Virus record (IMG/VR): IMGVR_UViG_3300046779_000163
Span: 1 to 32,448 of that record
Reading direction: 5' to 3' (one strand)
Origin: a virus
Lineage: Duplodnaviria > Caudoviricetes
Length of the DNA: 32,448 nucleotides
Shown one piece after another: positions 19,876 to 32,448 of the stretch. Position 1 is the first letter of the stretch. Each line of letters begins with the position of its first letter. Under the pieces are notes generated by a model that worked only from the letters and a program-made list of their open reading frames with translations, searched no databases and had not been told where the DNA came from. Made by a program: the position numbers and the translations under genes.

Positions 19876-20417
19876 TGAAATCGGTTATTATCACTTTATT
19901 AATAGCCGTTTTGATATTTTTCATATTTGACAAGTCAAAGTACATAGGCAACGAGCCAATCATAGTAACTAAGGTTGATACTGTTTATAGTAAAGACACA
20001 ATAGTAAAGATTAAGAAGGGTAAAGACATTCCTTTTGAGATTTACCGAGTTTTAGAAGATTCAATCTTTATTCACGACACGATACAAGTTTTAAGCGACT
20101 ACTACGCTACAAGGGTTTATAAGGATACAATTACCCAAGATTCAAGTAAGTTTTATATTCAAGATTCTATTTCCCAGAACAAAATTCTAAATAGAGCATT
20201 TAAGGCACAAATTGCCTATAAAACGATTTACAATACTACAACTATAACTAAAAAGAATAAGAATGCCATTTATTTAGGCTTTTTAACCGATTTAAGGGCA
20301 TTTGACAATAAATTAGGGATAGGAGTTGGCTTAGGCTATTATTCGCCTAAAAAAGGCTTATTTTTGCTAAACGCAACAACAAATCAATATAGTTTAGGTT
20401 TTTATAAAAAATTCTAA
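19875..20417 (+). CDS. Membrane-anchored lysis-module protein, spanin candidate
   Basis: N-terminal transmembrane segment, DT-rich stalk, C-terminal amphipathic beta strands ending in Phe. Confidence 0.55.
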   Translation: MKSVIITLLIAVLIFFIFDKSKYIGNEPIIVTKVDTVYSKDTIVKIKKGKDIPFEIYRVLEDSIFIHDTIQVLSDYYATRVYKDTITQDSSKFYIQDSISQNKILNRAFKAQIAYKTIYNTTTITKKNKNAIYLGFLTDLRAFDNKLGIGVGLGYYSPKKGLFLLNATTNQYSLGFYKKF

Positions 20418-20418
20418 T

Positions 20419-20634
20419 ATGTCAAAATGGATAGCCAACTTACTATCAGACGAGCGAGGAAGTATATCTACAAAGCGAGTTATCGCCTTGTTGAGTGCGT
20501 TCTTTTTATGTGTAACACTTTTGCTTAACGCAATTAAGGGTATTGCACTTTCGGACAATATTGTAAACGCAGTAATGGCTATTTGCGTGGCTGCGATGGG
20601 TTCTACTTCTATTGATAAATTCTCAAACAAATAA
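20419..20634 (+). CDS. Putative holin (2 TM)
   Basis: LLSDERGSISTKRV followed by two hydrophobic helices; upstream of the endolysin. Confidence 0.65.
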   Translation: MSKWIANLLSDERGSISTKRVIALLSAFFLCVTLLLNAIKGIALSDNIVNAVMAICVAAMGSTSIDKFSNK

Positions 20635-20636
20635 CT

Positions 20637-20723
20637 ATGAAAAAAAACGAAAAAGAAGCATTTGCATTTGGTGTTGTACTTTGGATTGTGTTAGTAAGTA
20701 TCTTTGCTAAACATTTGTTATAA
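20637..20723 (+). CDS. Single-TM microprotein, 28 aa (not in the ORF track)
   Basis: MKKNEKEAFAFGVVLWIVLVSIFAKHLL; exactly fills the gap; AACTATG start context. Confidence 0.6.
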   Translation: MKKNEKEAFAFGVVLWIVLVSIFAKHLL

Positions 20724-20726
20724 AAG

Positions 20727-21329
20727 ATGATTTCCAAGCGTTCAATTGACCTTATTATTCAGCATGAAATAGGCGGTCGTGCGGTGTATGAAAAACGCTA
20801 CCAAAAGCCAATATGGGCTGGTGGTGATTCTGGCTGCACTATTGGGATTGGCTACGACTTGGGTTATGTAACCGAAAAGCAGTTTTTTAGCGATTGGCAA
20901 GGTTTAAACCTTAACTTCTTAAACGCACTTAAAAGATTCTGCGGAGTTAAAGGCGAAATAGTTAAGACTATGCTAAGGGGCGAGGTTCTTAATGTAGTTA
21001 TTCCATATAATATGGCATATGATGTTTTCGTTAAGAAATCAATACCTAAGTATTACGCAATGACTAAAAAGATATATCCGCAATTAGATACTTTAAACGA
21101 AGACACAAGAGGTGCGTTAGTTTCTATGGTATATAACAGAGGAGCGAAATTAGACGGAGATTCAAGAAAGGAAATGAAAGCTATCGTGGATTTAGTGGCT
21201 AAACAAGATTACGAGGGAATTGCGGAACAAATTGAAAAGAGTAAAAGATTGTGGGAAGGGCGTGGACTTGATGGGTTGGTAATTAGGAGAGAAGCTGAAG
21301 CGGATTTGATTCGTGAAAGTATGGCATAA
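20727..21329 (+). CDS. Endolysin, lysozyme-like muramidase (pesticin/T4 lysozyme-like)
   Basis: IIQHE, DSGCTIGIGYDLG, ALVSMVYNRG, GLVIRREAEA. Confidence 0.88.
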   Translation: MISKRSIDLIIQHEIGGRAVYEKRYQKPIWAGGDSGCTIGIGYDLGYVTEKQFFSDWQGLNLNFLNALKRFCGVKGEIVKTMLRGEVLNVVIPYNMAYDVFVKKSIPKYYAMTKKIYPQLDTLNEDTRGALVSMVYNRGAKLDGDSRKEMKAIVDLVAKQDYEGIAEQIEKSKRLWEGRGLDGLVIRREAEADLIRESMA

Positions 21330-21346
21330 CCAAAAAACCGAAAATA

Positions 21347-22366
21347 ATGGCTGGAATGAAAACAACAATGAGTGGCAAGATAATCCTTGACTACTTAGAA
21401 AAGTATCCTCAATGGATGCCATCGCATACTTTAGCATCTTTAATCTACAAAGAGAACAAGAACCATTTTGATAACTCCGAGCAAATCCGAGCCTTAATTA
21501 GATATTACAGAGGTAAACTTGGTTCTACTGCTAAGAAACAATTAACCAACACTAAATTCGTTGATGAGTTTACAAGACACTCCGCAAACTTTGTGCAACC
21601 TCCTACATGGGTTGAAGAGAAACAAATTTTTAATTTGCCTATAGGAATAAAGAAAATGGGTTTTATTAGTGATTTGCAAGTTCCATTTCACGATCCAAAA
21701 GCAATAGATATTACATTTGATTATTTAACAAAGGAAGGAATAGACACGCTTTTTATTAATGGCGATTTAGTTGATTTCTACCAGTTAAGCGATTTCCAAA
21801 AGGATCCAAGAGTAAGAAAGTTTGACGAAGAACATGAAGCTATTATTGAGATGTTAGCTTACATAAGAAAGTCGTTCCCAAATATGACTATTTACTACAA
21901 TTTAGATAGCAACCATGAATTTAGGTATGAACGCTATATGCGAACAAAAGCACCAGAATTATTGAGTTTGCAGTTATTTGAGATAGAAGATATTTTACAA
22001 TTAAATACTTTTAACATTAAGCCTTTAAAGAATAACGACCATGTTAAGTTCGGACATCTACCAATAATACACGGAGATACTACATTTAGGCGAGGTTCTG
22101 GAGTAAGTCCTGCTAAAACATTATACGATAGAGTAAAGCAGTCAGCAATTGCATCCCATGTACATAGAACAAGCGAATACACGACTAAAAACCAGTTTGA
22201 CGGAGAAATATTTACTTGTTGGACAACTGGGCATCTAATGCATCCAAATGTTGAATATTGTAAACACACAGACCAGTACAATCAAGGATTCGCAATATTA
22301 GAGAAAGATAAAAGCGGAGAGTTTAGAGTACACAACAAACGAATAATAAAAAACAAAGTATTTTAA
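21347..22366 (+). CDS. Calcineurin-like metallophosphoesterase with an N-terminal extension
   Basis: SDLQVPFHD, NGDLVD, SNHE, IIHG, SHVH motifs. Confidence 0.85.
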   Translation: MAGMKTTMSGKIILDYLEKYPQWMPSHTLASLIYKENKNHFDNSEQIRALIRYYRGKLGSTAKKQLTNTKFVDEFTRHSANFVQPPTWVEEKQIFNLPIGIKKMGFISDLQVPFHDPKAIDITFDYLTKEGIDTLFINGDLVDFYQLSDFQKDPRVRKFDEEHEAIIEMLAYIRKSFPNMTIYYNLDSNHEFRYERYMRTKAPELLSLQLFEIEDILQLNTFNIKPLKNNDHVKFGHLPIIHGDTTFRRGSGVSPAKTLYDRVKQSAIASHVHRTSEYTTKNQFDGEIFTCWTTGHLMHPNVEYCKHTDQYNQGFAILEKDKSGEFRVHNKRIIKNKVF

Positions 22367-22557
22367 TGAGCCAAGTAACCGAACAAGTGATAAACGACAT
22401 CAAAGCAAGAGAAATAAAAGGCTTAGAAACATACGGAGTAACAATGGATCGAACTGATCTAACGCAAGACCAATGGTTACAACACGCTTACGAAGAAAGT
22501 CTTGACTTCTGCATTTATTTAAAAAAATTATTAATTATTAGAAATGGCAACTCTTAA
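22366..22557 (+). CDS. Small helical protein, possibly MazG/all-alpha NTP-pyrophosphatase-like
   Basis: KGLETYG...WLQHAYEESLDFCIYL with an EExxD acidic helix. Confidence 0.45.
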   Translation: MSQVTEQVINDIKAREIKGLETYGVTMDRTDLTQDQWLQHAYEESLDFCIYLKKLLIIRNGNS

Positions 22558-22744
22558 ACTACCTAAAGGATTCAGCAAAATGACATTATTTGAGCAAGAA
22601 AGCATTTTAGTTACCAAACTAAACGAGGTTTACGATTTAGAAAACGAGATTAAAAAAGCGTTAGCAAAAGTTAGAGGTGGATTAAAGTACACTCCTAAGG
22701 AAATTGACAGATTAGATTTGATTGAATTAAAGGATGAAAATTAG
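22544..22744 (+). CDS. Hypothetical protein
   Basis: Coupled ORF, coiled-coil-like. Confidence 0.65.
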   Translation: MATLKLPKGFSKMTLFEQESILVTKLNEVYDLENEIKKALAKVRGGLKYTPKEIDRLDLIELKDEN

Positions 22745-23003
22745 AATTATATATAAGAAACTGGGCAAAGAAAAGGCTCACGGCATCGCTTGTAGTGATG
22801 GCGAAGTTCTTATTGATTCAAGATTAAAGGGTAAAAAGCATTTAGAAATATTGATCCACGAAGTTTTGCATCTTTTAAACCCAGAAGATAGCGAGGAAAA
22901 GATAGTGCGTAAAAGCGTTGCCTTAACCAAGATACTATGGAAAGAGGGGTACAGAAGAGTTGACAACCACGACAAAGACCTGCTTCAAGACGGCTCAAAA
23001 TAG
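22734..23003 (+). CDS. Small HExxH zinc metallopeptidase-like protein
   Basis: AHGIA...IDSRL...ILIHEVLH....SEE. Confidence 0.7.
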   Translation: MKIRIIYKKLGKEKAHGIACSDGEVLIDSRLKGKKHLEILIHEVLHLLNPEDSEEKIVRKSVALTKILWKEGYRRVDNHDKDLLQDGSK

Positions 23004-23009
23004 AAGTCT

Positions 23010-23073
23010 TATCTTTGTAATGTTGTTTTTTCATAGTTCAGGTTTCTCCCAGTGTAAAAAGCTGGGAGTTTTT
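23010..23073 (+). ncRNA. Putative small RNA 1 (promoter box TATCTTTG 23010-17; RNA about 23021-23073)
   Basis: Promoter box, then TGTTGTTTTTTCATAGTTCAGGTTT, then terminator stem CTCCCAG(23046-52)/CTGGGAG(23062-68) plus T5. Confidence 0.6.
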
Positions 23074-23076
23074 ATT

Positions 23077-23151
23077 TATATTTGCTCATTCATATTGCAT
23101 AGTTTAGATTAAGGTTTTACAAGCGAGGGGTGTTTCTACATCCCTTTTTTT
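23077..23151 (+). ncRNA. Putative small RNA 2 (promoter box TATATTTG 23077-84; RNA about 23088-23151)
   Basis: Promoter box, then ATTCATATTGCATAGTTTAGATTAAGGTTTTAC, then terminator stem AGGGGTGT(23126-33)/ACATCCCT(23138-45) plus T-run. Confidence 0.6.
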
Positions 23152-23245
23152 ATGCTAAAATCATTAGCAAAATGATCCGAATAAGCCAGATAATCGGTTC
23201 AAATGTTAAAATTTCCTTAAATAGTAAAAAATAATTGTAGATAAG

Positions 23246-23277
23246 TTTGGTGGATAAGCTATGTGCATATATCTTTA
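23246..23277 (+). promoter_or_regulatory. Putative early promoter (-33 TTTG, 20-nt spacer, -7 TATCTTTA)
   Basis: Near-consensus Bacteroidota sigma-A architecture ahead of the small-gene block. Confidence 0.55.
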
Positions 23278-23301
23278 CTTCATAAACCAAAAAACAACAA
23301 T

Positions 23302-23499
23302 ATGAAAGCAAATTTTGAGATTTTCCCAATTGGAACTAAAGTACAGTCTTATGACAAAGATGGTTATTATGTAATGAACGCTTGTGGATTTATTGAAAAA
23401 CACTTAGGGGATGGACATTGTATTATCAAAGCGTTTAACGGAAAGTATTATTCAACTGTTGGTCAGTACAGAATTGCAGAAGTAGAGCAATTACATTAA
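23302..23499 (+). CDS. Hypothetical early protein (65 aa)
   Basis: ATG 23302 with an A-rich leader; FPIGTKVQ, possibly a small beta-barrel. Confidence 0.7.
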   Translation: MKANFEIFPIGTKVQSYDKDGYYVMNACGFIEKHLGDGHCIIKAFNGKYYSTVGQYRIAEVEQLH

Positions 23500-23557
23500 A
23501 ATAAAAATAGGGGTGCGACTATTCAACGCACAATTTTATAACCTTAAATTAAAAACT

Positions 23558-23755
23558 ATGAACTGGCAAACGACAATCTATTATGCCCAAGACGGCATAG
23601 ACTACCAACAAGTATTAGAAGCACCACACATCCCAAGAGTAGGCGATAGTATTATCGCAAATTTTGGCAAAGGAGTACACAGAATTATGTTCACAGTAGA
23701 AAGCATTACATTTTCTACAATGTCAAACTCAATTATTATCACTTTAAAACCTTAA
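23558..23755 (+). CDS. Hypothetical early protein (65 aa)
   Basis: AAACTATG start at 23558; HIPRVGDSI motif. Confidence 0.7.
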   Translation: MNWQTTIYYAQDGIDYQQVLEAPHIPRVGDSIIANFGKGVHRIMFTVESITFSTMSNSIIITLKP

Positions 23756-23757
23756 AC

Positions 23758-23853
23758 ATGAATCAGTACGAAAAAGACTCAATCAAGCCTATTTATGCCT
23801 TCATTATTTTTATGATTGGCTTAGTATTAACTGCATTAGTAGAAAACCTCTAA
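23758..23853 (+). CDS. Single-TM microprotein, 31 aa (not in the ORF track)
   Basis: MNQYEKDSIKPIYAFIIFMIGLVLTALVENL; fills the gap. Confidence 0.6.
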   Translation: MNQYEKDSIKPIYAFIIFMIGLVLTALVENL

Positions 23854-23863
23854 ACCTAAAAAT

Positions 23864-24163
23864 ATGAATCTAATCTATCAAGGGAAACAACTAAAACTAC
23901 ACAAAAGAGCGGCTTGTTTATTAGAATTGTTAAAGTCTGCACAATCCAGACAAACGCTATTTGAGAAAGATTTGGCAACTTGGCGAAGAGGTACAATGGA
24001 TGACCCAATCCGCTTAATGCAGCGAGAGGAAGACATTCTTATAAAGATTGCCAGAATGAACCAAGTTCAAAAGCGTATTTTAAAATCATACCATTTTTTA
24101 ATATTGGATTTGTACGAAATCACAGAGGATTTTATGCTTCCAATTAACCTTTTACACTTTTAA
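23864..24163 (+). CDS. Hypothetical protein
   Basis: ORF with an A-rich leader. Confidence 0.7.
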   Translation: MNLIYQGKQLKLHKRAACLLELLKSAQSRQTLFEKDLATWRRGTMDDPIRLMQREEDILIKIARMNQVQKRILKSYHFLILDLYEITEDFMLPINLLHF

Positions 24164-24164
24164 T

Positions 24165-24353
24165 ATGAGTTACATAGACAACAAAGCGTATTATATCAAG
24201 ATGGTGCAAATCTTGGAATTAGAAAACGAATTACTTAGAAAACAAATTAAAGAAACAAAACAGAAATTAAATGAGTTACTTAACCCATCCGATAATGAAG
24301 GAAAAATCGGGATTAAAACAACAAATAGAGAAAGCGGATCAAATCATAGCTAA
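24165..24353 (+). CDS. Hypothetical coiled-coil protein
   Basis: LELENELLRKQIKE; starts 1 nt after the previous stop. Confidence 0.55.
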   Translation: MSYIDNKAYYIKMVQILELENELLRKQIKETKQKLNELLNPSDNEGKIGIKTTNRESGSNHS

Positions 24354-24609
24354 AGTTGCAGCTTTTTATGGTATGTCTAATGAAGACATAAGAGGCAAAT
24401 GCCGTAAGAAAGAACTGGTAAAAGCTAGATGGATTGCGATGCACTTTATTAGGCAACAAACTGACTTTACGCTAAATACAATTGGCGATATGTTCGGAAG
24501 GGACCATACAACAGTAATCCACGCTTTACAGACTATTAATGATATTATGGCTTTACACTATGAAACGGACTTCAAAGAAGATTTTATAAAAATTCAAAGA
24601 TTTATTTGA
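24271..24609 (+). CDS. Stand-alone DnaA C-terminal (domain IV) HTH protein
   Basis: IIAKVAAFYG...R.KELVKARWIAM......TLNTIGDMFGRDHTTVIHA is the DnaA domain IV signature. Confidence 0.88.
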   Translation: MSYLTHPIMKEKSGLKQQIEKADQIIAKVAAFYGMSNEDIRGKCRKKELVKARWIAMHFIRQQTDFTLNTIGDMFGRDHTTVIHALQTINDIMALHYETDFKEDFIKIQRFI

Positions 24610-24662
24610 TTATTCACAAAAAAGTCCTAATTTTAATTATCAAATAACCTAAAACACAATCT

Positions 24663-25286
24663 ATGCAAGAATTACAACAAGTCAAGCCGACTTACGAACT
24701 TATCAACAAAGATAGTCTTTTGAGCCTTTCAAATGAGTTGGCAAGTCTTATCAAAGAGAAAAAACTAAGTACTAACATTCAAGGTAAACAATTTGTAAAT
24801 GTTGAAGGCTGGGGTTACGCTGGTGCAGCAATTGGATTAATTCCAATTATTACCGAAGTAAAAGACCTAAGCAAAGAAAACGAAACAAAATACTGGGCAA
24901 CTTGCGAGGTTAGAAATATCGCAACTGGACAAGTAGTATCAATTGGACACGCTATTTGTTCCAACAAAGAAAGAACTAAAAGAACCTTTGACGAGTATGC
25001 TATTTGCTCAATGGCTCAAACAAGAGCCGAAGGAAAGGCTTATAGACTTTTATTAGGTTGGCTTATGAAAGCTGCAGGATTTGAAGCAACTCCAGCTGAA
25101 GAAATGGACTTTAGCAAAGAACAAGCACCTTATGTAAAGAAGCACGAAACTCAAGAGAATTTAGTAGTAGCAATTGATTTTTGCGAAAGTTTGACGGAAT
25201 TAAAGCAACTTTACGAACTAAATATTACTATGATTCAAGAGAACGGATTAAACGAATTATTTACTAACGCTAAAAAGAACTTATAA
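24663..25286 (+). CDS. Putative single-strand annealing / recombination protein
   Basis: IQGKQFVNVEGW...SMAQTRAEGKAYR...TPAEEM; layout resembles Rad52/ERF-like proteins; replication-module context. Confidence 0.5.
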   Translation: MQELQQVKPTYELINKDSLLSLSNELASLIKEKKLSTNIQGKQFVNVEGWGYAGAAIGLIPIITEVKDLSKENETKYWATCEVRNIATGQVVSIGHAICSNKERTKRTFDEYAICSMAQTRAEGKAYRLLLGWLMKAAGFEATPAEEMDFSKEQAPYVKKHETQENLVVAIDFCESLTELKQLYELNITMIQENGLNELFTNAKKNL

Positions 25287-25510
25287 TGAAAACAGCAATG
25301 CAAATAGCAGTAGAAAGTTATAAAAATGACGGAGTATCTTTCACTGATTGGTTTTTGGATAATTATGAAATGCTACTTGAAAAAGAAAAACAAGAAATAA
25401 TTCACGCTTTTAATTGTGGAGAAAGTTTTAGTGTTGATTATTTTAATGCAGAAACACCAGAAGTGGCACCATCAGTTAATTATTACATACAATCTTACAA
25501 AAACAAATAA
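25286..25510 (+). CDS. Hypothetical protein, MKTAMQ family copy 1
   Basis: Shares MKTAMQ, LLEKEK and a ...NK end with 28297..28500. Confidence 0.7.
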   Translation: MKTAMQIAVESYKNDGVSFTDWFLDNYEMLLEKEKQEIIHAFNCGESFSVDYFNAETPEVAPSVNYYIQSYKNK

Positions 25511-25513
25511 CCT

Positions 25514-25759
25514 ATGAGCAAAGAAGTACAACTTGAAAACTTACGAGACAATGTAAGATACTGGGAATACCGATTTAACAATTGTAGTCCACATCAAGCA
25601 CGAGCAATGCAACAAATGGTAATTAAAGCTAAAGAGCAAGTAAAAGAATACAAGAAAAAGTATTTCCCATCTTTATTAGTGCCACCAAATTACTTTAAGT
25701 CAGAGCCTTATGTAAGGATGTCGGATTGGACTGAAAATCTAGAAGAATATTCAAATTAA
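25514..25759 (+). CDS. Hypothetical protein
   Basis: ORF following the junction motif AAACAAATAACCTATG. Confidence 0.7.
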   Translation: MSKEVQLENLRDNVRYWEYRFNNCSPHQARAMQQMVIKAKEQVKEYKKKYFPSLLVPPNYFKSEPYVRMSDWTENLEEYSN

Positions 25760-25763
25760 TATT

Positions 25764-25832
25764 ATGAAATGGATTTGCTTAATTATAATTTTATTGTGTA
25801 TTATGGATGCAATTAATAATATAAAAAAATAA
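25764..25832 (+). CDS. Hydrophobic microprotein, 22 aa (not in the ORF track)
   Basis: MKWICLIIILLCIMDAINNIKK; fills the gap. Confidence 0.4.
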   Translation: MKWICLIIILLCIMDAINNIKK

Positions 25833-25835
25833 ACT

Positions 25836-26024
25836 ATGCCTTATTCAACTTGCTGCGGAGCTTACACCGACATGGGAGAAATTGATATTTGCCCAGAATG
25901 TTTAGAACATTGCGATTTTGAAATAGAAGATGAAGAAGAAGAAGAAGAACTTTTAGAAGACCAAAAGACGGAAGACCAAATAAATGAATGGAAATGGGTA
26001 TTTAATAGTAAAATTAAGAGATAA
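25836..26024 (+). CDS. Small Cys-rich (zinc-binding) acidic protein
   Basis: STCCGA...ICPECLEHC followed by a poly-Glu tract. Confidence 0.7.
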   Translation: MPYSTCCGAYTDMGEIDICPECLEHCDFEIEDEEEEEELLEDQKTEDQINEWKWVFNSKIKR

Positions 26025-26349
26025 TAATAAATCAAAAAATTACAAAGTACATAGAATTGTTGCCAATGTATATTTAGATAATCCAAGTAATTTACCACAA
26101 GTAAATCATAAAGATGGATTTAAATTAAATAATCATTTTGTCAATTTAGAATGGGTTTCTGGTTCTGATAATATGAAACACGCTTATAATAATGGTCTAA
26201 TGAAAAAAAATAGGCAAAAATGTGTTTTAGATAGTCAAACTGGGATTTTCTATGATTCAATAAAAGAAGCATCAATAGCTAAAAATATTAATCACAATAC
26301 AATGAGAGGATTAATATTAAACAACAAAACATCAATTATTCATATTTAA
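25984..26349 (+). CDS. HNH homing-endonuclease-like protein (N-terminally short) with a NUMOD1-like tail
   Basis: VHRIVA...NLPQVNHKDGFKLNN...NLEWVS..NMKHA; YDSIKEAS. Confidence 0.88.
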   Translation: MNGNGYLIVKLRDNNKSKNYKVHRIVANVYLDNPSNLPQVNHKDGFKLNNHFVNLEWVSGSDNMKHAYNNGLMKKNRQKCVLDSQTGIFYDSIKEASIAKNINHNTMRGLILNNKTSIIHI

Positions 26350-26359
26350 AAATTAAAAC

Positions 26360-26641
26360 ATGAAAGTATTAAATGTATGTATGGAAGACATTAAATGGAA
26401 ACCAGTACAAACTAAATCTGGAGTAAAACATTACGCAAATATTGCCGTTGATTACCTAAGAGAGCCAGACGATAAAGGTAACAATCTAACAGTCTGGAAT
26501 AATCAAACGCAAGAGCAAAGAGCGGAGAAAGCTAAAAAGGAATATTGCGGTCGTGGTAAAGAGTACAAGTTTGACGCTAAAAAAGAGTATGCAAATACTA
26601 ATAAGCAGGAAATGGAAGATCAAGATAATATGCCATTTTAA
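26360..26641 (+). CDS. Putative single-stranded DNA-binding protein
   Basis: Small beta-rich protein with an acidic tail ending EDQDNMPF, like an SSB C-terminus. Confidence 0.55.
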   Translation: MKVLNVCMEDIKWKPVQTKSGVKHYANIAVDYLREPDDKGNNLTVWNNQTQEQRAEKAKKEYCGRGKEYKFDAKKEYANTNKQEMEDQDNMPF

Positions 26642-26664
26642 ACATTAACAAAACTTTAACAATT

Positions 26665-26859
26665 ATGAAAACTCAAAAAGAACAAATCAAAAAACACTTA
26701 TTAAGCAGAAAATCAATTACTCCTATTCAAGCATTAAATAAATTTGGTTGCCTTAGACTTGCAGCGGTTATTTATAAGCTAAAGAACGAAGGATTAAAAA
26801 TTATGACTGAAATTGAGTACAATAAGAAGAAACAATTTGCTAAATATAGGTTAGTATAG
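26665..26859 (+). CDS. Winged helix-turn-helix protein
   Basis: QIKKHL....SITPIQALNKFGCLRLAAVIYKLKNEG...YRL. Confidence 0.8.
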   Translation: MKTQKEQIKKHLLSRKSITPIQALNKFGCLRLAAVIYKLKNEGLKIMTEIEYNKKKQFAKYRLV

Positions 26860-26958
26860 TATATTTGTAAAAGGTGTCGGATACCTATTATAAACTTATT
26901 GGCTCAAAGCTGAAGCACCAATCCGACTGGTGTGGAAGCCGAGAGCCTTTTTTATTTT
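26860..26958 (+). promoter_or_regulatory. Promoter box TATATTTG plus structured 5' leader of the replication gene
   Basis: Two hairpins with complementary segments GTCGGAT(26876-82)/ATCCGAC(26921-27); T-run just before the ATG. Confidence 0.6.
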
Positions 26959-27696
26959 ATGGCGAAAAGATTTACAGATACAGAGAAATGGAAAAAACCT
27001 TTTATAAGGTCCTTGAAAGCCCCTTACAAGCTGCTATGGTTATATATTTGCGATGACTGCGACCATTCTGGAATATGGCAAGTTGATTTAGATGTAGCAG
27101 AAATTAGAATTGGAGAAAAATTAAACGAGCAAAAAGCTATTGAATATTTTGCGGAAAAAATAATTTTACTTGATAATGGATCAAAATGGTTTATACCCAG
27201 TTTTGTAGAATTTCAATACCCAAGCGGATTAAGCGAAAATAATAAGGCTCACGCTGGAATTATTAAAAATTTGGATAAGTATAAATACCAAATAGAGAAC
27301 TTTAAGCCCCTTACAAGCCCCTTGCAAGGGGACAAGGATATGGATATGGATAAGGTAATGGATATGGTTAAGGTTAAGGAAAAGGTTATAGTGGAAATTC
27401 TTGATCCAAAATTTGAAGAATGGTGGTTATGGTACGATTATAAAGTTTCTAAAGAAAAGGCAAAAAAGTCTTGGAATAAGCTAAATGAAAATGAAAAAGA
27501 TTTAGCTTTACAATCCGTTCAAGCCTATGTACAATCTACCCCAGATAAAACATATAGAAAACATCCAACAACATATCTAAACCAAAAATGCTTTAACGAT
27601 GAAATCATCAACAGAAATACAACAAGTCAATCAAGGGTTAGCCCAAAAATTACCATTGAACAGTTACACGAAGCACATTCTAAATTCTTTAGCTAA
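26959..27696 (+). CDS. Replication initiator / replisome organizer-like protein
   Basis: MAKRFTDTEKW...KLLWLYICDDCDHSGIW N-domain, low-complexity linker, FEEWW..Y..KVSKEKAKKSW...HPTTYLNQ C-domain; ATG 26959. Confidence 0.75.
   Translation: MAKRFTDTEKWKKPFIRSLKAPYKLLWLYICDDCDHSGIWQVDLDVAEIRIGEKLNEQKAIEYFAEKIILLDNGSKWFIPSFVEFQYPSGLSENNKAHAGIIKNLDKYKYQIENFKPLTSPLQGDKDMDMDKVMDMVKVKEKVIVEILDPKFEEWWLWYDYKVSKEKAKKSWNKLNENEKDLALQSVQAYVQSTPDKTYRKHPTTYLNQKCFNDEIINRNTTSQSRVSPKITIEQLHEAHSKFFS
27304..27389. repeat. Iteron-like repeats, palindrome and hexamer run (putative origin) inside the initiator gene
   Basis: AAGCCCCTT(A/G)CAAG twice, palindrome CCCCTTGCAAGGGG 27318-31, then nine GGWWAW hexamers. 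Confidence 0.55.
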
Positions 27697-28222
27697 AAAT
27701 GATAGAGGTGCAGTTTTTAATGAACTTTGCAGGTTTAAAGACAAAGGCGAAGTTTTGCCAGTAAAAGTAATTCAGTTAGTTCCAGTAAGCGAAAGGCTAC
27801 CAGCTTTAACTAAGATTTATGGAAATGAAAAAATATCTGGTATACTATCAATAGCAATAACTAAGGCTTTAAATAACTTCAATTTGAGGGTTGGAATGAA
27901 TGCAGAGCAAATTATGCAATTGTCTTATTCAATCATTGAAGAGGCTGAAGCGGACCAATTGGCTATTCAAGATGTTCTTTTGTTTTTAGACGGAATGGTT
28001 AAATACAAATACGGCAAAGTTTATGATAGAATGGATATGCCTACATTCTTTGAAATGTTTGAGGTATATCGTCAACAAAGACATGACGAGTTTGTTAATT
28101 TTATGGAAGAACAACACGCTCAAAACAAATCATACGGAGATAGCAACCGAATGTCAACCGATACGGACAAAGAAGCTAATCGTAATGCTATGAATGAATA
28201 TTTAAAAACAATATCAAAATAA
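27599..28222 (+). CDS. Hypothetical replication-associated protein
   Basis: Directly follows and overlaps the initiator; KYGKVYDRMD motif. Confidence 0.6.
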   Translation: MKSSTEIQQVNQGLAQKLPLNSYTKHILNSLAKNDRGAVFNELCRFKDKGEVLPVKVIQLVPVSERLPALTKIYGNEKISGILSIAITKALNNFNLRVGMNAEQIMQLSYSIIEEAEADQLAIQDVLLFLDGMVKYKYGKVYDRMDMPTFFEMFEVYRQQRHDEFVNFMEEQHAQNKSYGDSNRMSTDTDKEANRNAMNEYLKTISK

Positions 28223-28296
28223 TTGCCCCCAAATTTTTAATCATTAACAGAGTGGTGTTTGTTATGTCTAAAATGGGGGCATTAAAACTTTAAACT

Positions 28297-28500
28297 ATGA
28301 AAACAGCAATGCAAGAATTAATTGACTATTTAGATAGTATATGGTCAAACGGAGGATGGGAAGAAACTATTAAAGAAAAAGCAAAAGATTTACTTGAAAA
28401 AGAAAAAGAGCAGATGTTTAATTTGATTCGTTTTATGCGTACTAATGATAAAATGGGTAAAAGCACAGAAGATTTATATAATGAATTTTATAATAAATAA
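28297..28500 (+). CDS. Hypothetical protein, MKTAMQ family copy 2
   Basis: Paralogous motifs with 25286..25510. Confidence 0.7.
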   Translation: MKTAMQELIDYLDSIWSNGGWEETIKEKAKDLLEKEKEQMFNLIRFMRTNDKMGKSTEDLYNEFYNK

Positions 28501-28504
28501 AAAT

Positions 28505-28714
28505 ATGAATCAATTTATAATAGTTTTAACAATAACAATTTATGTATTTATTGGAATATTTATTGGTGCTTTGACAACTGAAAAAGATGATTATGATAGA
28601 GATGATATAATTACAATAAGCGTAATAATTTGGCCTTTTGTTATTATAGCAGTATTATTTATTGGTTTTTATAATTTAGTTATCAAATTAGCAGATTTTT
28701 TAAAAAACAAATAA
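28505..28714 (+). CDS. Two-TM membrane protein
   Basis: ATG 28505; two hydrophobic helices, IWPF motif. Confidence 0.7.
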   Translation: MNQFIIVLTITIYVFIGIFIGALTTEKDDYDRDDIITISVIIWPFVIIAVLFIGFYNLVIKLADFLKNK

Positions 28715-28716
28715 CT

Positions 28717-28920
28717 ATGAACAATTTAAAAAATGGAAAAACAATTGAAATGTTGTTAAACATTGGCAAAGAAGGAACTGAAAAATATTTAACTAAAGGG
28801 ACACAAATAAAAGTAACCGAAGTTGAACATTCTGAATTATTTAATTCAATTTTTATTACATTAGAAAATGGACATTTTTATATGATGACAGAAAATTTAG
28901 ATTATAAAATTTTGAATTAA
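28717..28920 (+). CDS. Hypothetical protein (cassette-like)
   Basis: Bounded by AAACAAATAACTATGA junction repeats. Confidence 0.7.
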   Translation: MNNLKNGKTIEMLLNIGKEGTEKYLTKGTQIKVTEVEHSELFNSIFITLENGHFYMMTENLDYKILN

Positions 28921-29226
28921 CCAAAACAAATAACTATGAATGAATATAGAATTATTGAAGGAGTATATAAAAATGAATACGGCAAAAAAGAACGCATAGC
29001 GTATTACATAAAAGAAAAAAAGAAGTTTCTAGGAATAAACTATTGGAGTTTTGTAAAGCATCTACAATGTGGATATGGCGATTGCTACTATACTAAAACT
29101 GAATTTGATTCACACCACGACGCATATCAATTTGTAAAAAACCACTTATGTGGCAAAGATTTTCAGGAAGGATGGAGTTATAAAGTAATAAACGAATTTA
29201 GTTGTAACCAAAACAAATAACTATGA
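28918..29226 (+). repeat. 22-bp perfect direct repeats TAACCAAAACAAATAACTATGA (28918-39 and 29205-26)
   Basis: Read directly from the sequence; they flank exactly one gene. Confidence 0.9.
28936..29220 (+). CDS. Hypothetical protein (cassette-like)
   Basis: Lies between the 22-bp repeats; its C-terminal NQNK is encoded by the repeat. Confidence 0.75.
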   Translation: MNEYRIIEGVYKNEYGKKERIAYYIKEKKKFLGINYWSFVKHLQCGYGDCYYTKTEFDSHHDAYQFVKNHLCGKDFQEGWSYKVINEFSCNQNK

Positions 29227-29423
29227 CAAGTTATCAAAAACTTAAAAAACAAATAGAGCGATTAAAAGAGCATAAATTAACATTGAAACAAGGTTTGGTA
29301 AGTGTATGTCTTAACCCAAATTCTACAGTAAGTATTAGTATTATAAATCATCACAAGAATAAATATAAAAGTGTTGACGAAGTATCTGAAAAATATCAAA
29401 ATAATAACTATGAAATACATTAA
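29223..29423 (+). CDS. Hypothetical protein
   Basis: Starts within the 22-bp repeat. Confidence 0.6.
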   Translation: MTSYQKLKKQIERLKEHKLTLKQGLVSVCLNPNSTVSISIINHHKNKYKSVDEVSEKYQNNNYEIH

Positions 29424-29508
29424 ATTTTTCTTTATTAGCGTTCCGTTGGCTTTTATACTAATAACAACGGCAAATATTTACTTTGAATTAAAAAGATGGA
29501 TAAAATGA
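29410..29508 (+). CDS. Single-TM microprotein, 32 aa (not in the ORF track)
   Basis: MKYIKFFFISVPLAFILITTANIYFELKRWIK; AATAACTATGA start context. Confidence 0.6.
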   Translation: MKYIKFFFISVPLAFILITTANIYFELKRWIK

Positions 29509-29711
29509 TAGTGAGTGGTGCGGAAAATGCAAGACCAATAAAAATGATAGACATAGAAACAAAAGAAGTAACCATATTTAAAAGCATAGCCTACGCAGTA
29601 AGAACGACTAAAGTTCCAGAATACTCAATTAGGCAAGGTTTAAGTCCTTTAGCTAAAAAGCGATTTGAGGTAAATGGTAGAACTGTTGTTTTTCGCATAC
29701 ATAAACCCTAA
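29496..29711 (+). CDS. Stand-alone NUMOD1-like DNA-binding protein
   Basis: RPIKMIDIETKEVTIFKSIAYAVR...SIRQGL. Confidence 0.55.
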   Translation: MDKMIVSGAENARPIKMIDIETKEVTIFKSIAYAVRTTKVPEYSIRQGLSPLAKKRFEVNGRTVVFRIHKP

Positions 29712-29716
29712 CTTTG
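29709..29716 (+). promoter_or_regulatory. -7 promoter box TAACTTTG, 4 nt before the ATG
   Basis: TAACTTTG-cctt-ATG(29721). Confidence 0.6.
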
Positions 29717-29720
29717 CCTT

Positions 29721-30089
29721 ATGGCATTAACTCCATTACCAAAACTATTAGAAAAGACACAAAAGGTTGTAAACGCTTATGTTCGTAAAAGAGACGAAGG
29801 TTTGCCTTGTATATCTTGCGGAAGTCCTAACGCAAATCAAGCTGGGCATTACTTCCCTCAAAAAGGTTTTTCAGCTTTAAGATTTAATGAGTGGAATATA
29901 AACCTTCAATGTGCGGCTTGTAATTGTTACAAACACGGCAACCAAGCTATGTACAGAATTGGTTTAGTAAATAAGATAGGCGAAGAGGCAGTAAGAGGAT
30001 TAGAAACTATTGCGACTAATTTAAAAGTTTATAAATGGTCCAGAGAAGAGTTAAATAATATAATCAAGACATATGGCGAAGGTAAATAG
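29721..30089 (+). CDS. ninG: NinG/Rap-family recombination endonuclease
   Basis: YVRKRDEGLPCISCG..AGHY....LRFNEWNINLQCAACN..KHGN. Confidence 0.9.
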   Translation: MALTPLPKLLEKTQKVVNAYVRKRDEGLPCISCGSPNANQAGHYFPQKGFSALRFNEWNINLQCAACNCYKHGNQAMYRIGLVNKIGEEAVRGLETIATNLKVYKWSREELNNIIKTYGEGK

Positions 30090-30192
30090 CAGTAATAAAG
30101 TAACATTTGGTAAACGCAAATGCGGTAAGTATAAAAAGACATCTGGTCCTAAGGATAAACCAGTTAAACCTTATCGTAAACAAGGCAGATAG
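30073..30192 (+). CDS. Small basic protein, 39 aa (not in the ORF track)
   Basis: MAKVNSSNKVTFGKRKCGKYKKTSGPKDKPVKPYRKQGR; stop lies 1 nt before the next ATG. Confidence 0.65.
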   Translation: MAKVNSSNKVTFGKRKCGKYKKTSGPKDKPVKPYRKQGR

Positions 30193-30193
30193 T

Positions 30194-30388
30194 ATGAAAG
30201 ACACATTCGCAAAAAGAGAATACAAATGCAAGTGCGGTAGAATAACCGAAGACTATGTATGGCAGTCTTTGTTGGAGTTTCATAAAGTAGCTTGTTTTAA
30301 GTGTGGAAAGGAACTAAGCATTGAAAGCCTAAAAGTCAAAGAAAAAACACAATTGCCATCTATTAGAACTGACACAAAAAACCGATAA
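30194..30388 (+). CDS. Zinc-ribbon protein
   Basis: EYKCKCG...ACFKCG; ATG 30194. Confidence 0.7.
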   Translation: MKDTFAKREYKCKCGRITEDYVWQSLLEFHKVACFKCGKELSIESLKVKEKTQLPSIRTDTKNR

Positions 30389-30389
30389 T

Positions 30390-30587
30390 ATGCGATATTT
30401 AATTAACAAAAGTAAAAATGAAGCTAAGGATGATTTTAGAAATTCAACAGTTTTTGCATTATTACCTAAAAAATGCTTTGATGTAGAAAGTAGATTAGAA
30501 TTTATAGTTTGGCTTGAAACAGTAAAAGTTACATACAGATATGATTGGAATATTAAAAAATGGATAATTGACCATTATTATTTATAA
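30390..30587 (+). CDS. Hypothetical protein
   Basis: Coupled ORF; FALLPKK...VWLETV. Confidence 0.65.
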   Translation: MRYLINKSKNEAKDDFRNSTVFALLPKKCFDVESRLEFIVWLETVKVTYRYDWNIKKWIIDHYYL

Positions 30588-30596
30588 AATGAATCT

Positions 30597-31844
30597 ATGA
30601 AAATAACAGACATTAAACCTAATCCAGAAAACCCAAGAATAATAAAAGACCATAAGTTTAAGCAACTTGTTGAGTCTATTAAGTCCTTCCCCCAAATGCT
30701 GGAACTTAGACCTATCGTAATTGACGAGAATAACATTGTATTGGGAGGTAATATGCGTTTAAAGGCTTGTACGGAAGCAGGACTTACAGATGTGCCAGTT
30801 ATTTACGCAAAAGATTTAACTGAAGAGCAAAAGAAAGAATTTATCATTAAGGATAATGTAGGCTATGGCGAATGGGATTGGGATGCATTAGCAAATCAAT
30901 GGGATTTAGAATTATTGAATGAATGGGGTCTCGATTTGCCAGATTTAGATATTCCAGATTCATTTATTGAAGCTAAAGAAGATGACTACGAAATACCAGA
31001 TACAATAAATACAGATATTGTTGAGGGAGATTTATTTGAAATTGGAGAACATAAACTTTTATGCGGTAGCTCAACTCAAACAGATACATGGGCTAAACTT
31101 TTTAATGAAGAATTAGCAGATATGGTAATGACAGACCCACCATATAATGTAAATTATGAAGGTGGAACTGGTTTAAAGATTATGAATGACGAAATGAGCA
31201 ATGATTCATTTTATCAATTTTTATATGATTTTTATACCGCTTTAGGTTCTTATACAAAAGCTGGAGGAGCTTGGTATGTTTGGCACGCTGATAGCGAGGG
31301 AGCAAATTTTAGACAAGCATTTAAAGATTCTGGATTATTACTAAAACAATGTTTGATTTGGGTAAAAAATGCTTTAGTTATGGGTAGGCAAGATTATCAT
31401 TGGAAACACGAGCCATGTTTATATGGTTGGAAAGAAGGTGCAGCTCATTATTTTACAGAAGACAGAACAAAAACTACTGTAATAGAAGACGAGGTAGATT
31501 ACAAGAAATTATCAAAAAAGGAATTGTTAGATTTAGTAAAAGAAATAACTTCAGATAAACAAAAGACAACAATTATACATTGTGATAAACCATCTAAAAA
31601 TGATGTCCATCCAACAATGAAACCAATAAAATTATTAGCACCATTAATTGAAAATTCATCAAAAGTAGGTCAATTAGTAGCAGATGGATTTCTTGGTTCT
31701 GGTTCAACTATGGTGGCGGCACATCAATTAAAGAGAAAGTGTTATGGCACAGAACTTGACCCCAAATACTGCCAAGTTATAATTGACAGAATGAGAAAAC
31801 TTGACCCAACATTGATTATCAAGAAGAACGGAGTACCTTTGTAA
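30597..31844 (+). CDS. ParB-N domain fused to an N6A/N4C DNA methyltransferase (beta class)
   Basis: KPNPENPR...RPIVID...GNMRLKA; TDPPYN, HPTMKP, DGFLGSGST. Confidence 0.92.
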   Translation: MKITDIKPNPENPRIIKDHKFKQLVESIKSFPQMLELRPIVIDENNIVLGGNMRLKACTEAGLTDVPVIYAKDLTEEQKKEFIIKDNVGYGEWDWDALANQWDLELLNEWGLDLPDLDIPDSFIEAKEDDYEIPDTINTDIVEGDLFEIGEHKLLCGSSTQTDTWAKLFNEELADMVMTDPPYNVNYEGGTGLKIMNDEMSNDSFYQFLYDFYTALGSYTKAGGAWYVWHADSEGANFRQAFKDSGLLLKQCLIWVKNALVMGRQDYHWKHEPCLYGWKEGAAHYFTEDRTKTTVIEDEVDYKKLSKKELLDLVKEITSDKQKTTIIHCDKPSKNDVHPTMKPIKLLAPLIENSSKVGQLVADGFLGSGSTMVAAHQLKRKCYGTELDPKYCQVIIDRMRKLDPTLIIKKNGVPL

Positions 31845-31868
31845 TTGATTAGAAATTGATTAGAGAAA

Positions 31869-32216
31869 ATGGCAAACGAACAAAACTTAATACCAGCTAA
31901 GAAAGGCGAAGTAAGAAATCCCAACGGAAAGCCTAAAGGAGTGCAAAATAGCAAGACAAGACTTTTGCGTTTACTTGAATTAGTAACAAAGGTTAGAAAC
32001 CCAGTTACTGGCGAAGAAGAAGAATTTAGCATAGCAGAACAATTGGATATGCAGATTATAGCTAAGGCAAGAAAGGGAGACCTTAAAGCCTATGAGATAA
32101 TCTTAGACCGATTAGAAGGTAAGCCTAAGCAATCAACAGAGGTAGAGGTAAGCGGTGGAATGAGTATTACTTGGGAAGAGAAAAAAACTTATGTAGGAAA
32201 TACTGGTAGCCTATAA
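31869..32216 (+). CDS. terS: Terminase small subunit
   Basis: NLIPAKKGEVRNPNGKPKG, KARKGDLKAY..ILDRLEGKPKQ; TAATG-coupled to terL. Confidence 0.8.
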   Translation: MANEQNLIPAKKGEVRNPNGKPKGVQNSKTRLLRLLELVTKVRNPVTGEEEEFSIAEQLDMQIIAKARKGDLKAYEIILDRLEGKPKQSTEVEVSGGMSITWEEKKTYVGNTGSL

Positions 32217-32448
32217 TGGAACTTTCTATAAAACAAACCATAGCTTTAGATTTACTTGAAGATAAGACCACAAACGAAATCTTATTTGGTGGTGGTGCTG
32301 GTGGTGGCAAGACTGCATTAGGTTGTTATTGGCAGTTAAAGCAAAGGTTGAAATATCCAAATACAAGAGGCTTGATAGGTCGTGCAGTCCTAAAGACACT
32401 TAAAGAAACTACATTGGTTTCGTTCTTTCAAGTAGCTAAGTTACAAGG
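32216..32448 (+). CDS. terL: Terminase large subunit, 5' part (continues at the window start)
   Basis: MELSIKQTIALDLLEDKTTNEILFGGGAGGGKTALG includes the Walker A motif. Confidence 0.93.
   Translation, partial: MELSIKQTIALDLLEDKTTNEILFGGGAGGGKTALGCYWQLKQRLKYPNTRGLIGRAVLKTLKETTLVSFFQVAKLQ
32322..32448. repeat. Terminal direct repeat, copy 2
   Basis: Identical to 1-127. Confidence 0.95.

Follow-up and report, generated by a model that had tools for sequence, protein, structure and literature searches.

In Bacteroidota, upstream adenines promote translation initiation in place of Shine-Dalgarno sequences (PMC6847099, PMC7366714), and the classical RNA chaperones are reported to be missing from this phylum (PMC11697453). 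Two sRNA systems of these bacteria are closest to the locus described here. FopS RNAs are transcribed from a primary-sigma promoter, expose a single-stranded 5′ seed antisense to the start region of several targets, end in a Rho-independent terminator, and repress host susC/PUL mRNAs (PMC11697453). According to the same source, FopS-10 blocks translation of its target in vitro by a seed similar to those considered below, the protein RbpB binds FopS and AU-rich sequences, and a FopS sequence was noted in a Caudovirales phage. GibS of Bacteroides thetaiotaomicron represses its targets by an unstructured AT-rich 5′ seed that pairs over their start codons (PMC7366714). Phage sRNAs with known targets stem mostly from Proteobacteria and Firmicutes, and the term "Bacteroid" is absent from the accessible text of a 2025 review (PMC12197685). 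Among them, the c4 RNA of P1/P7 acts on an mRNA of the phage itself by blocking its ribosome-binding region, and its sequence specificity underlies heteroimmunity (PMC12197685). VpdS of a Vibrio phage and PreS of lambda are phage-encoded base-pairing sRNAs with multiple targets, which for VpdS include host and phage mRNAs (bioRxiv 10.1101/2024.10.31.621285). In a literature search that left most subscription journals outside its coverage, we found no description of a Bacteroidota phage sRNA directed against the phage's own genes.

The window, that is, the whole stretch of 32,448 bases analysed here, is the virus record IMGVR_UViG_3300046779_000163, a complete genome with direct terminal repeats. 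Almost all genes are located on the + strand; the block from terminase through lysis and accessory genes reaches up to 23003, and small early and replication genes follow from 23302. The host appears to belong to the Bacteroidota, judging from the TAnnTTTG promoter boxes, from the closest capsids of named phages, those of Cellulophaga phi10:1 and of Flavobacterium 11b (31-34%), and from the genome matches, four of five of which are Bacteroidota MAG contigs that may be co-binned phage. A preliminary description of the locus had stated that the phage has no recognisable protein repressor. In a PHROGs search the window genes indeed matched no integrase or CI-type family; the early region nevertheless contains two HTH genes, at 24271 (Bac_DnaA_C) and at 26665 (HTH_39), the latter directly ahead of the replication initiator gene.

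Two tandem units lie at the late/early boundary, each consisting of a −7 box, a U-rich unpaired stretch, a hairpin and a U-tail, and in this anatomy our analysis agrees with the preliminary description in every element. The −7 box of unit 1 (23010..23017, + strand; TAnnTTTG, consensus from PMC6847099) precedes a predicted RNA of about 53 nt (23022..23074, +) with an unpaired seed at 23021-23044, a hairpin at 23046-23068 and a U-tail. For unit 2 the −7 box (23077..23084, +) is followed by a predicted RNA of about 63 nt (23089..23151, +) with the seed at 23088-23119, a hairpin at 23125-23146 and a U-tail; the RNA 5′ ends were placed by setting the G of the −7 box at −5 (PMC6847099). The unit 2 seed is built from a TTCATA block and a GGTTT block, and its hairpin loop is GTTTCTAC. 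The 5′ parts are unpaired in the folds (z −3.1 for unit 1 and −2.1 for unit 2), and the two hairpins are the only terminator-like + strand matches in 20000-32448. No −33 element is present in either unit of the window, and no TTG is found 17-23 nt upstream of the unit 1 −7 box; the −33 element is described as weak in Flavobacterium (PMC6847099). We consider it probable that the units are sRNA genes whose products pair in trans with the start regions of the phage's own early genes and thereby likely block translation initiation.

The surroundings of the units show further sequence features. TAnnTTTG boxes are also found ahead of many late genes (1221, 3509, 5427, 12160, 14593, 19545, 20700, 31835), and a predicted early promoter is located at 23246..23277 (+; TTTG, 20 nt, TATCTTTA), for which relatives often have TATCTTTG. 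The interval between unit 2 and this promoter (23150-23245) is very variable and contains many short inverted and direct repeats, e.g., TGCTAA...TTAGCA; here and in relatives it possibly comprises operators or an origin.

Relatives were gathered by means of the last late-region ORF (22734..23003, +; 89 aa, no family) as anchor gene; 80 of 290 loci were taken in, which together with the window gave 81 sequences, and units were located in them by their terminators, not by the −7 boxes. Both units are present in 61 of the 81 sequences, a single unit in one, and none in 19, whose fetched flanks contain no homologue of the early genes of the two-unit phages. In a tree built from three proteins of 43 loci, six clades (A-F) branch separately, D and E being represented by 1-3 loci each. 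The −7 box of unit 2 was found in 61/61 two-unit sequences and varies only at its two n positions (6 variants). The unit 1 box occurs in clades A and F and is absent in B-E, in which the last late gene has unit 1, without a promoter of its own, as its 3′ UTR. As had been proposed as a check, relatives keep the seeds beyond the hairpins: unit 1 seeds contain TCATA in 61/61 sequences, unit 2 seeds CATA in 60/61 and GGT in 61/61, while 18 distinct hairpins were counted for unit 1 and 30 for unit 2. The CAT core persists even between lineages whose anchor proteins share about 70% identity. Conservation extends to the hairpin loops: that of unit 1 is A-rich, and GTTTCTAC recurs in many copies of unit 2 as well as in unrelated phages. 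A model of the unit 2 stem, based on an alignment that had been fitted to the tested structure, showed two-sided changes at all 8 pairs (122 cells versus 43 shuffled).

Two other arrangements were seen at this site. In L032 units 1 and 2 are separated by an insert that consists of a further −7 box, some 45 nt and a U-tailed hairpin and contains no CATA seed. The unit-less loci L034, L044, L046-L049, L051, L070-L077, L079 and L081 have another conserved structure after the anchor gene, composed of a pair of short repeated blocks and a U-tailed hairpin with a long loop.

The design of the units resembles that of FopS in promoter type, single-stranded 5′ seed antisense to start regions, Rho-independent terminator and number of targets. 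Folds, terminator scan and stem covariation of unit 2 agree with the FopS structure, and the −7 boxes agree by sequence with a primary-sigma promoter, with no −33 element in the window. The two seeds resemble the conserved R1/R1′ seed of FopS without being identical to it: they could be aligned to a true FopS copy in 19/24 and 24/30 columns, with seeds differing between phage clades. An RNA model of unit 2 finds this FopS copy at 39.1 bits. By score the units fall outside the family (RF04319): unit 2 reached 20.3 bits (E 1.9) at a gathering threshold of 56, unit 1 had no FopS match on its own strand in the Rfam scan, and the whole window gave no gathering-level Rfam match. FopS is multicopy on Bacteroidaceae chromosomes, whereas we found two tandem units in a phage; and while FopS represses host susC/PUL mRNAs, the phage seeds vary by clade and track HTH and recombinase starts of the phage. 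The likeness may reflect either homology or convergence. With GibS the units share the AT-rich unstructured 5′ seed over start codons, but GibS is chromosomal and longer, has two seeds and metabolic targets (PMC7366714), and Rfam scans of the window did not match it. As in c4, a phage RNA would act on the phage's own mRNA, but c4 hits the ant mRNA through loops of a structured RNA (PMC12197685), whereas here short linear seeds match many early starts; the window contains no Rfam C4 match, and no antirepressor is among the PHROGs matches listed. VpdS and PreS, likewise encoded by phages and directed at multiple targets, come from Proteobacteria, PreS being among the Hfq-dependent sRNAs with host targets (bioRxiv 10.1101/2024.10.31.621285), and we found no sequence link between them and the units. 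We regard c4, VpdS and PreS as functional analogues in other phyla of what the units are predicted to do.

In order to get an idea of the targets, the start regions of the window were compared to both seeds; a sequence search located every match of the preliminary description. AACTATGAA occurs in 6 copies on the + strand, 0.54 being expected by base composition, and its only copy on the − strand is unit 1 itself. All six copies (at 28297, 23558, 28717, 28936, 29410 and 20637) are indeed located at predicted starts, but 20637 belongs to a 28-codon ORF in the late region. The best predicted partner of unit 1 in the window is the start region of ORF 28297 (28290..28310, +), with −17.6 kcal/mol. 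The start region of the first early ORF, 23302 (23289..23306, +), has an 11-nt match to unit 1 and a 9-nt match to unit 2. The leader of ORF 23558 (23540..23562, +) varies along with unit 2 in clade A, and its two 8-nt blocks complementary to unit 2 (23540-60) were read off the sequence and partly re-shown in later comparisons. The start region of the 31-aa ORF 23758 (23745..23766, +) matches unit 2 over 11 nt, and over 10-13 nt in most clade B loci. The units do not fit a type I antitoxin, for which a single antisense RNA with long complementarity to the mRNA of one small hydrophobic toxin would be expected: this ORF is one target among several, and its matches comprise 9-14 nt in most loci. 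The main covarying target of unit 2 is the start region of the recombinase-slot gene (gene 24663-25286; start region 24650..24671, +), that of unit 1 in relatives the start region of the winged-HTH gene (gene 26665-26859, Pfam HTH_39; start region 26652..26675, +), where the window has 8 perfect bases with unit 1 and a co-folding energy of −12.7 kcal/mol. The tiny ORFs 20637-20723 (28 aa) and 23758-23853 (31 aa) both have hydrophobic C-terminal halves and strong seed matches, and may possibly encode membrane peptides.

Both seeds pair more strongly with early than with late starts. For 27 early versus 28 late starts, p values were 0.0007 (unit 1) and 0.0018 (unit 2) in a duplex test, and 0.003 and 0.0004, respectively, in co-folding. 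When internal ATGs from the early region served as reference, the duplex test (153 ATGs) gave p=0.006 for unit 1 and a weak p=0.07 for unit 2, and co-folding (151 ATGs) gave p<0.0001 for both units. The starts of the window had been hand-picked with the preliminary description already known; those of the relatives were chosen by a seed-blind picker or by homology. A perfect run of at least 9 nt to either seed was present at 11/27 early starts versus 2/28 late starts, and at 12/165, 5/94 and 5/80 starts in three samples of Bacteroidota chromosomes (22/339 in total); the rate at early phage starts is thus about six-fold that on the chromosomes. Enrichment of matches at early starts, for which the preliminary description had suggested a test, thus holds against late starts, internal ATGs and chromosomal starts. 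Its caveat also proved correct: AACTATG or TATGAA is a generic start context in Bacteroidota phages, and in unrelated phages real leaders, read on the reverse strand, fit the seed pattern as well.

With such a shared start context, the RNAs might act mainly on host mRNAs, as FopS acts on susC, e.g., those for MKK-starting exported or outer-membrane proteins and possibly the phage receptor, and the matches within the phage would be a by-product. Between 5 and 7% of the chromosomal starts have a match of at least 9 nt, many of them at MKK starts resembling signal peptides, the unit 1 core is nearly invariant, the seeds resemble FopS, and a chromosomal unit of like design exists (L095, see below). 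We nevertheless consider host mRNAs unlikely as the main targets: the match rate at early phage starts is about six-fold that in the three Bacteroidota chromosome samples, and perfect matches of 16-24 nt to the phage's own HTH start, compensated single changes, or the out-of-sample pairing of unit 1 with HTH and of unit 2 with recombinase starts described below are not expected in this case. Since 22/339 chromosomal starts match, host side-targets are possible in addition to the early phage genes.

To follow the pairing through the family, we compared how well each seed fits the early leaders of its own and of foreign clades. In a cross-clade test with 47 loci, unit 2 seeds fitted their own early leaders best (rank 1/120 by both metrics), and the own-fit of unit 1, with start regions ending at +9, ranked 18 and 31 of 120. 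Extension to six clades, 56 loci and start regions up to +20 led to ranks 3 and 4/720 for unit 1 and 1 and 3/720 for unit 2. The +20 limit and the sixth clade were adopted with the first result for unit 1 already known, and for this reason an out-of-sample test on new loci constitutes the clean test. Within clades, unit 2 covaries with its leaders in A (16/5040) and C (2/720) and not in B (113/120); unit 1 showed no covariation within any clade tested, and in 3 of 11 loci it failed to beat shuffled-seed controls. Gene by gene, unit 2 tracks the recombinase slot and the first early genes. The slot is filled by RecT in clades B and C, by ERF in E and F, and by an unclassified protein in A and D; in the window this protein has 207 aa and no Pfam family, with Sak/Rad52 as a lead at 0.89 only, and likely represents a single-strand annealing protein without an assigned class. 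The tracking has exceptions in L006 and L011, where a CCTTTA leader is present and the matching seed is absent. Unit 1 tracks the start of the winged-HTH gene: in L159 it is perfectly complementary over 24 nt to the start of the phage's own HTH gene, at a distance of 2.9 kb, and in L018 the perfect match to the own HTH start comprises 16 nt.

For the out-of-sample test, the pairing of unit 1 with HTH and of unit 2 with recombinase starts was predicted in writing before 50 loci were fetched, of which 43 were new and 21 of these had both units. HTH starts matched their own unit 1 over 11.9 nt and foreign ones over 10.1 nt (6/20,000 permutations), recombinase starts matched their own unit 2 over 8.5 nt and foreign ones over 6.8 nt (0/20,000), each with 15 distinct pairs. 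Crossed controls were much weaker (1028 and 611 of 20,000). These counts overstate the significance because related phages are not independent. In individual loci, seed and target have changed together: in L295 a one-base loss is compensated, 7 loci combine CATAGC seeds with recombinase starts of the form GCTATG, and 3 loci combine CATAAG seeds with TTATG starts. A test for G-U wobble was mixed, with 37 G-U versus 18 A-C for unit 1 and 8 versus 21 for unit 2. The seeds thus have the property of trans-acting sRNAs, complementarity to distant starts with which they covary, with failures in clade B and in the wobble test. Together with seed retention and enrichment, the covariation, which had been named as a check and was found also in loci fetched after the prediction, supports the earlier reading of multi-target pairing in trans with early starts. 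The winged-HTH gene for unit 1 and the recombinase-slot gene for unit 2, which appear to be the main cognate targets, had escaped the preliminary description, as had the position of unit 1 as 3′ UTR in clades B-E and the FopS-like design.

Part of this pattern could also arise if the units were tandem terminators insulating the early promoter and the U-rich stretches functionless inverted leader copies made by template switching. Such copying also yields an excess of own over foreign matches as well as the 24-nt match of L159; the reverse strand of 23501-23562 (leader and hairpin) scores 32.7 bits as FopS, so that such units arise easily, and the mixed wobble test fits as well. That the units are nothing but terminators is very unlikely in our view, considering that a −7 box between both terminators varies in all 61 sequences at the two free positions alone, that the CAT core is kept despite hairpin turnover, and that the post-capsid terminator in the genomes of these phages has no seed. 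Seeds may arise by inverted copying of leaders and still be functional as anti-start RNAs.

Another explanation is that the RNAs function by a host RNA-binding protein (an RbpB-like RRM protein or ribosomal bS1) instead of pairing, or that unit 1 is a cis-acting 3′ UTR folding back on its own mRNA. The conserved hairpin loops, the position of unit 1 as 3′ UTR in clades B-E, and the reported binding of RbpB to FopS and AU-rich sequences (PMC11697453) would be in agreement with this. We give it a slim chance: protein binding leaves the covariation with distant starts unexplained, late starts including that of the upstream gene match poorly, and unit 2, as well as unit 1 of clades A and F, has its own −7 box. 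It is hardly credible that the motif is a DNA operator bound in both orientations by an HTH protein of the phage, or that the seed CAT is the start of reverse-strand peptides. The phage does encode two HTH proteins, and a 74-codon reverse-strand ORF starts within unit 1 of the window. Both versions were rejected, since the motif is non-palindromic, is inverted only in the units, and otherwise sits at start codons and reaches into coding sequence, and since the lengths of the reverse-strand ORFs scatter from 1 to 74 codons in 67 loci.

If the units are sRNA genes, as we think probable, the primary sigma factor of the host would transcribe them from the −7 boxes, and transcription would end at the hairpins. 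Unit 1 RNA would pair mainly with the mRNA of the winged-HTH regulator and with other AACTATGAA starts, unit 2 RNA mainly with that of the recombinase-slot gene and the first early genes. The duplex would hide the AUG and the upstream adenines and block initiation, so that repression is to be expected, as for FopS-10. Two short contigs of a relative were present in one of four sequencing runs examined, a run that is probably DNA, and none in the other three, which has no bearing on expression. Most likely the RNAs would serve to wind down early functions in the course of infection, since in clades B-E the last late gene ends in unit 1 and the unit of a sister lineage lies among the head genes.

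In this sister lineage, 18 new loci keep the HTH, ERF and mostly also the DnaA-type genes, and the unit pair is absent at the anchor site. Four whole genomes were examined, and each has a unit among the head genes with a seed lacking the GGTTT block; one of them has a second unit, with GGTTT. The seeds of the head-gene units match the phages' own starts, mostly early ones, over 11-14 nt. A reading of the sister lineage as RNA-less was ruled out by these units. AAACC was found in only 6/145 early leaders of the sister lineage versus 66/178, 49/158, 36/144 and 34/92 in clades A, B, C and F (25-37%), and ACTATG at 0/9 HTH starts versus 26/35, while TATGAA is retained at 29/145 starts. The sister phages represent a single lineage, and this evidence therefore counts once.

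Considering these data, the locus represents a compact, testable case of a phage in which an entire class of own genes is apparently repressed at covered start codons, and this in a phylum without Shine-Dalgarno pairing and Hfq. The natural compensatory variants point to the HTH regulator and the recombinase slot as targets and provide ready-made swap pairs. The locus also suggests what the FopS-like sequence noted in a phage might be used for, and the units may offer a minimal scaffold for designed repressors in Bacteroidota.

Similar units were searched in other phages and in chromosomes. A pattern without stem demand beyond the loop-closing bases matched 109 viral loci, 64 with hairpin and U-tail, and 47 of these 64 have no homologues of ten window proteins, although 9 of the 47 span only some 600 bases. 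The units of unrelated phages include sites behind head-protease genes or tRNAs. A search of the unrelated phages with a target pattern matched nothing but the units themselves, and the fetched flanks ended short of the early genes. In 301 Bacteroidota genomes the same unit 2 pattern, a strict one, was found in 2, a search of 151 Bacteroidota genomes with the RNA model gave at least 3 matches (32 candidates scored per genome), and a loose pattern had six matches in three Bacteroidota MAGs, none with a convincing terminator. Further pattern scans revealed no new clade, only known family members, reverse strands of ordinary leaders and chance matches. On a far-reaching reading, which we regard as doubtful, RNA takes the place of a CI-type repressor in these phages: small RNAs made by the host polymerase would silence the first early genes, the recombinase and the HTH regulator not only in the phage itself but also in superinfecting relatives, and immunity groups would be set by the clade-specific seeds, in the manner of c4 in P1/P7 but with many targets. 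Since the arrangement of seed, GGTTT, hairpin and U-tail occurs in unrelated phages, self-directed anti-start-codon RNAs could, on the same reading, be a general layer of control in Bacteroidota phages, renewed by inverted copying of leaders.

Several recurrent arrangements were seen in these searches. Among larger phages or prophage-like regions, TTCATAGGATAAGGTTTA together with a GTTTCTAC hairpin was seen repeatedly (L094 and L149, similar in L175, L132, L133 and L223); this unit follows directly after a tRNA in L094 and lies between tRNAs in L149. In L171, L172, L187, L136, L127 and their kin, which belong to another phage group, a gene resembling those of head-maturation proteases has a seed-plus-terminator unit as its 3′ UTR. 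L095 (G066:C1:3266459-3266527, − strand) is a chromosomal unit with a TTTCATAGG seed and a hairpin and without Rfam family match, and one GTTTCTAC hairpin of L230-L239 is also chromosomal and has a TTTCATAGG seed. These chromosomal units are possibly undescribed FopS-like sRNAs outside the Bacteroidaceae. A GGGGTGCG...CGCAC hairpin is located ahead of an early leader in 15/61 two-unit sequences (23501-23562 in the window; also L042, L019, L023, L028 and L030, among others). In the sister lineage it is found reversed, at the end of minus-strand cassettes, and the hairpin possibly delimits swappable early cassettes at their 3′ end.
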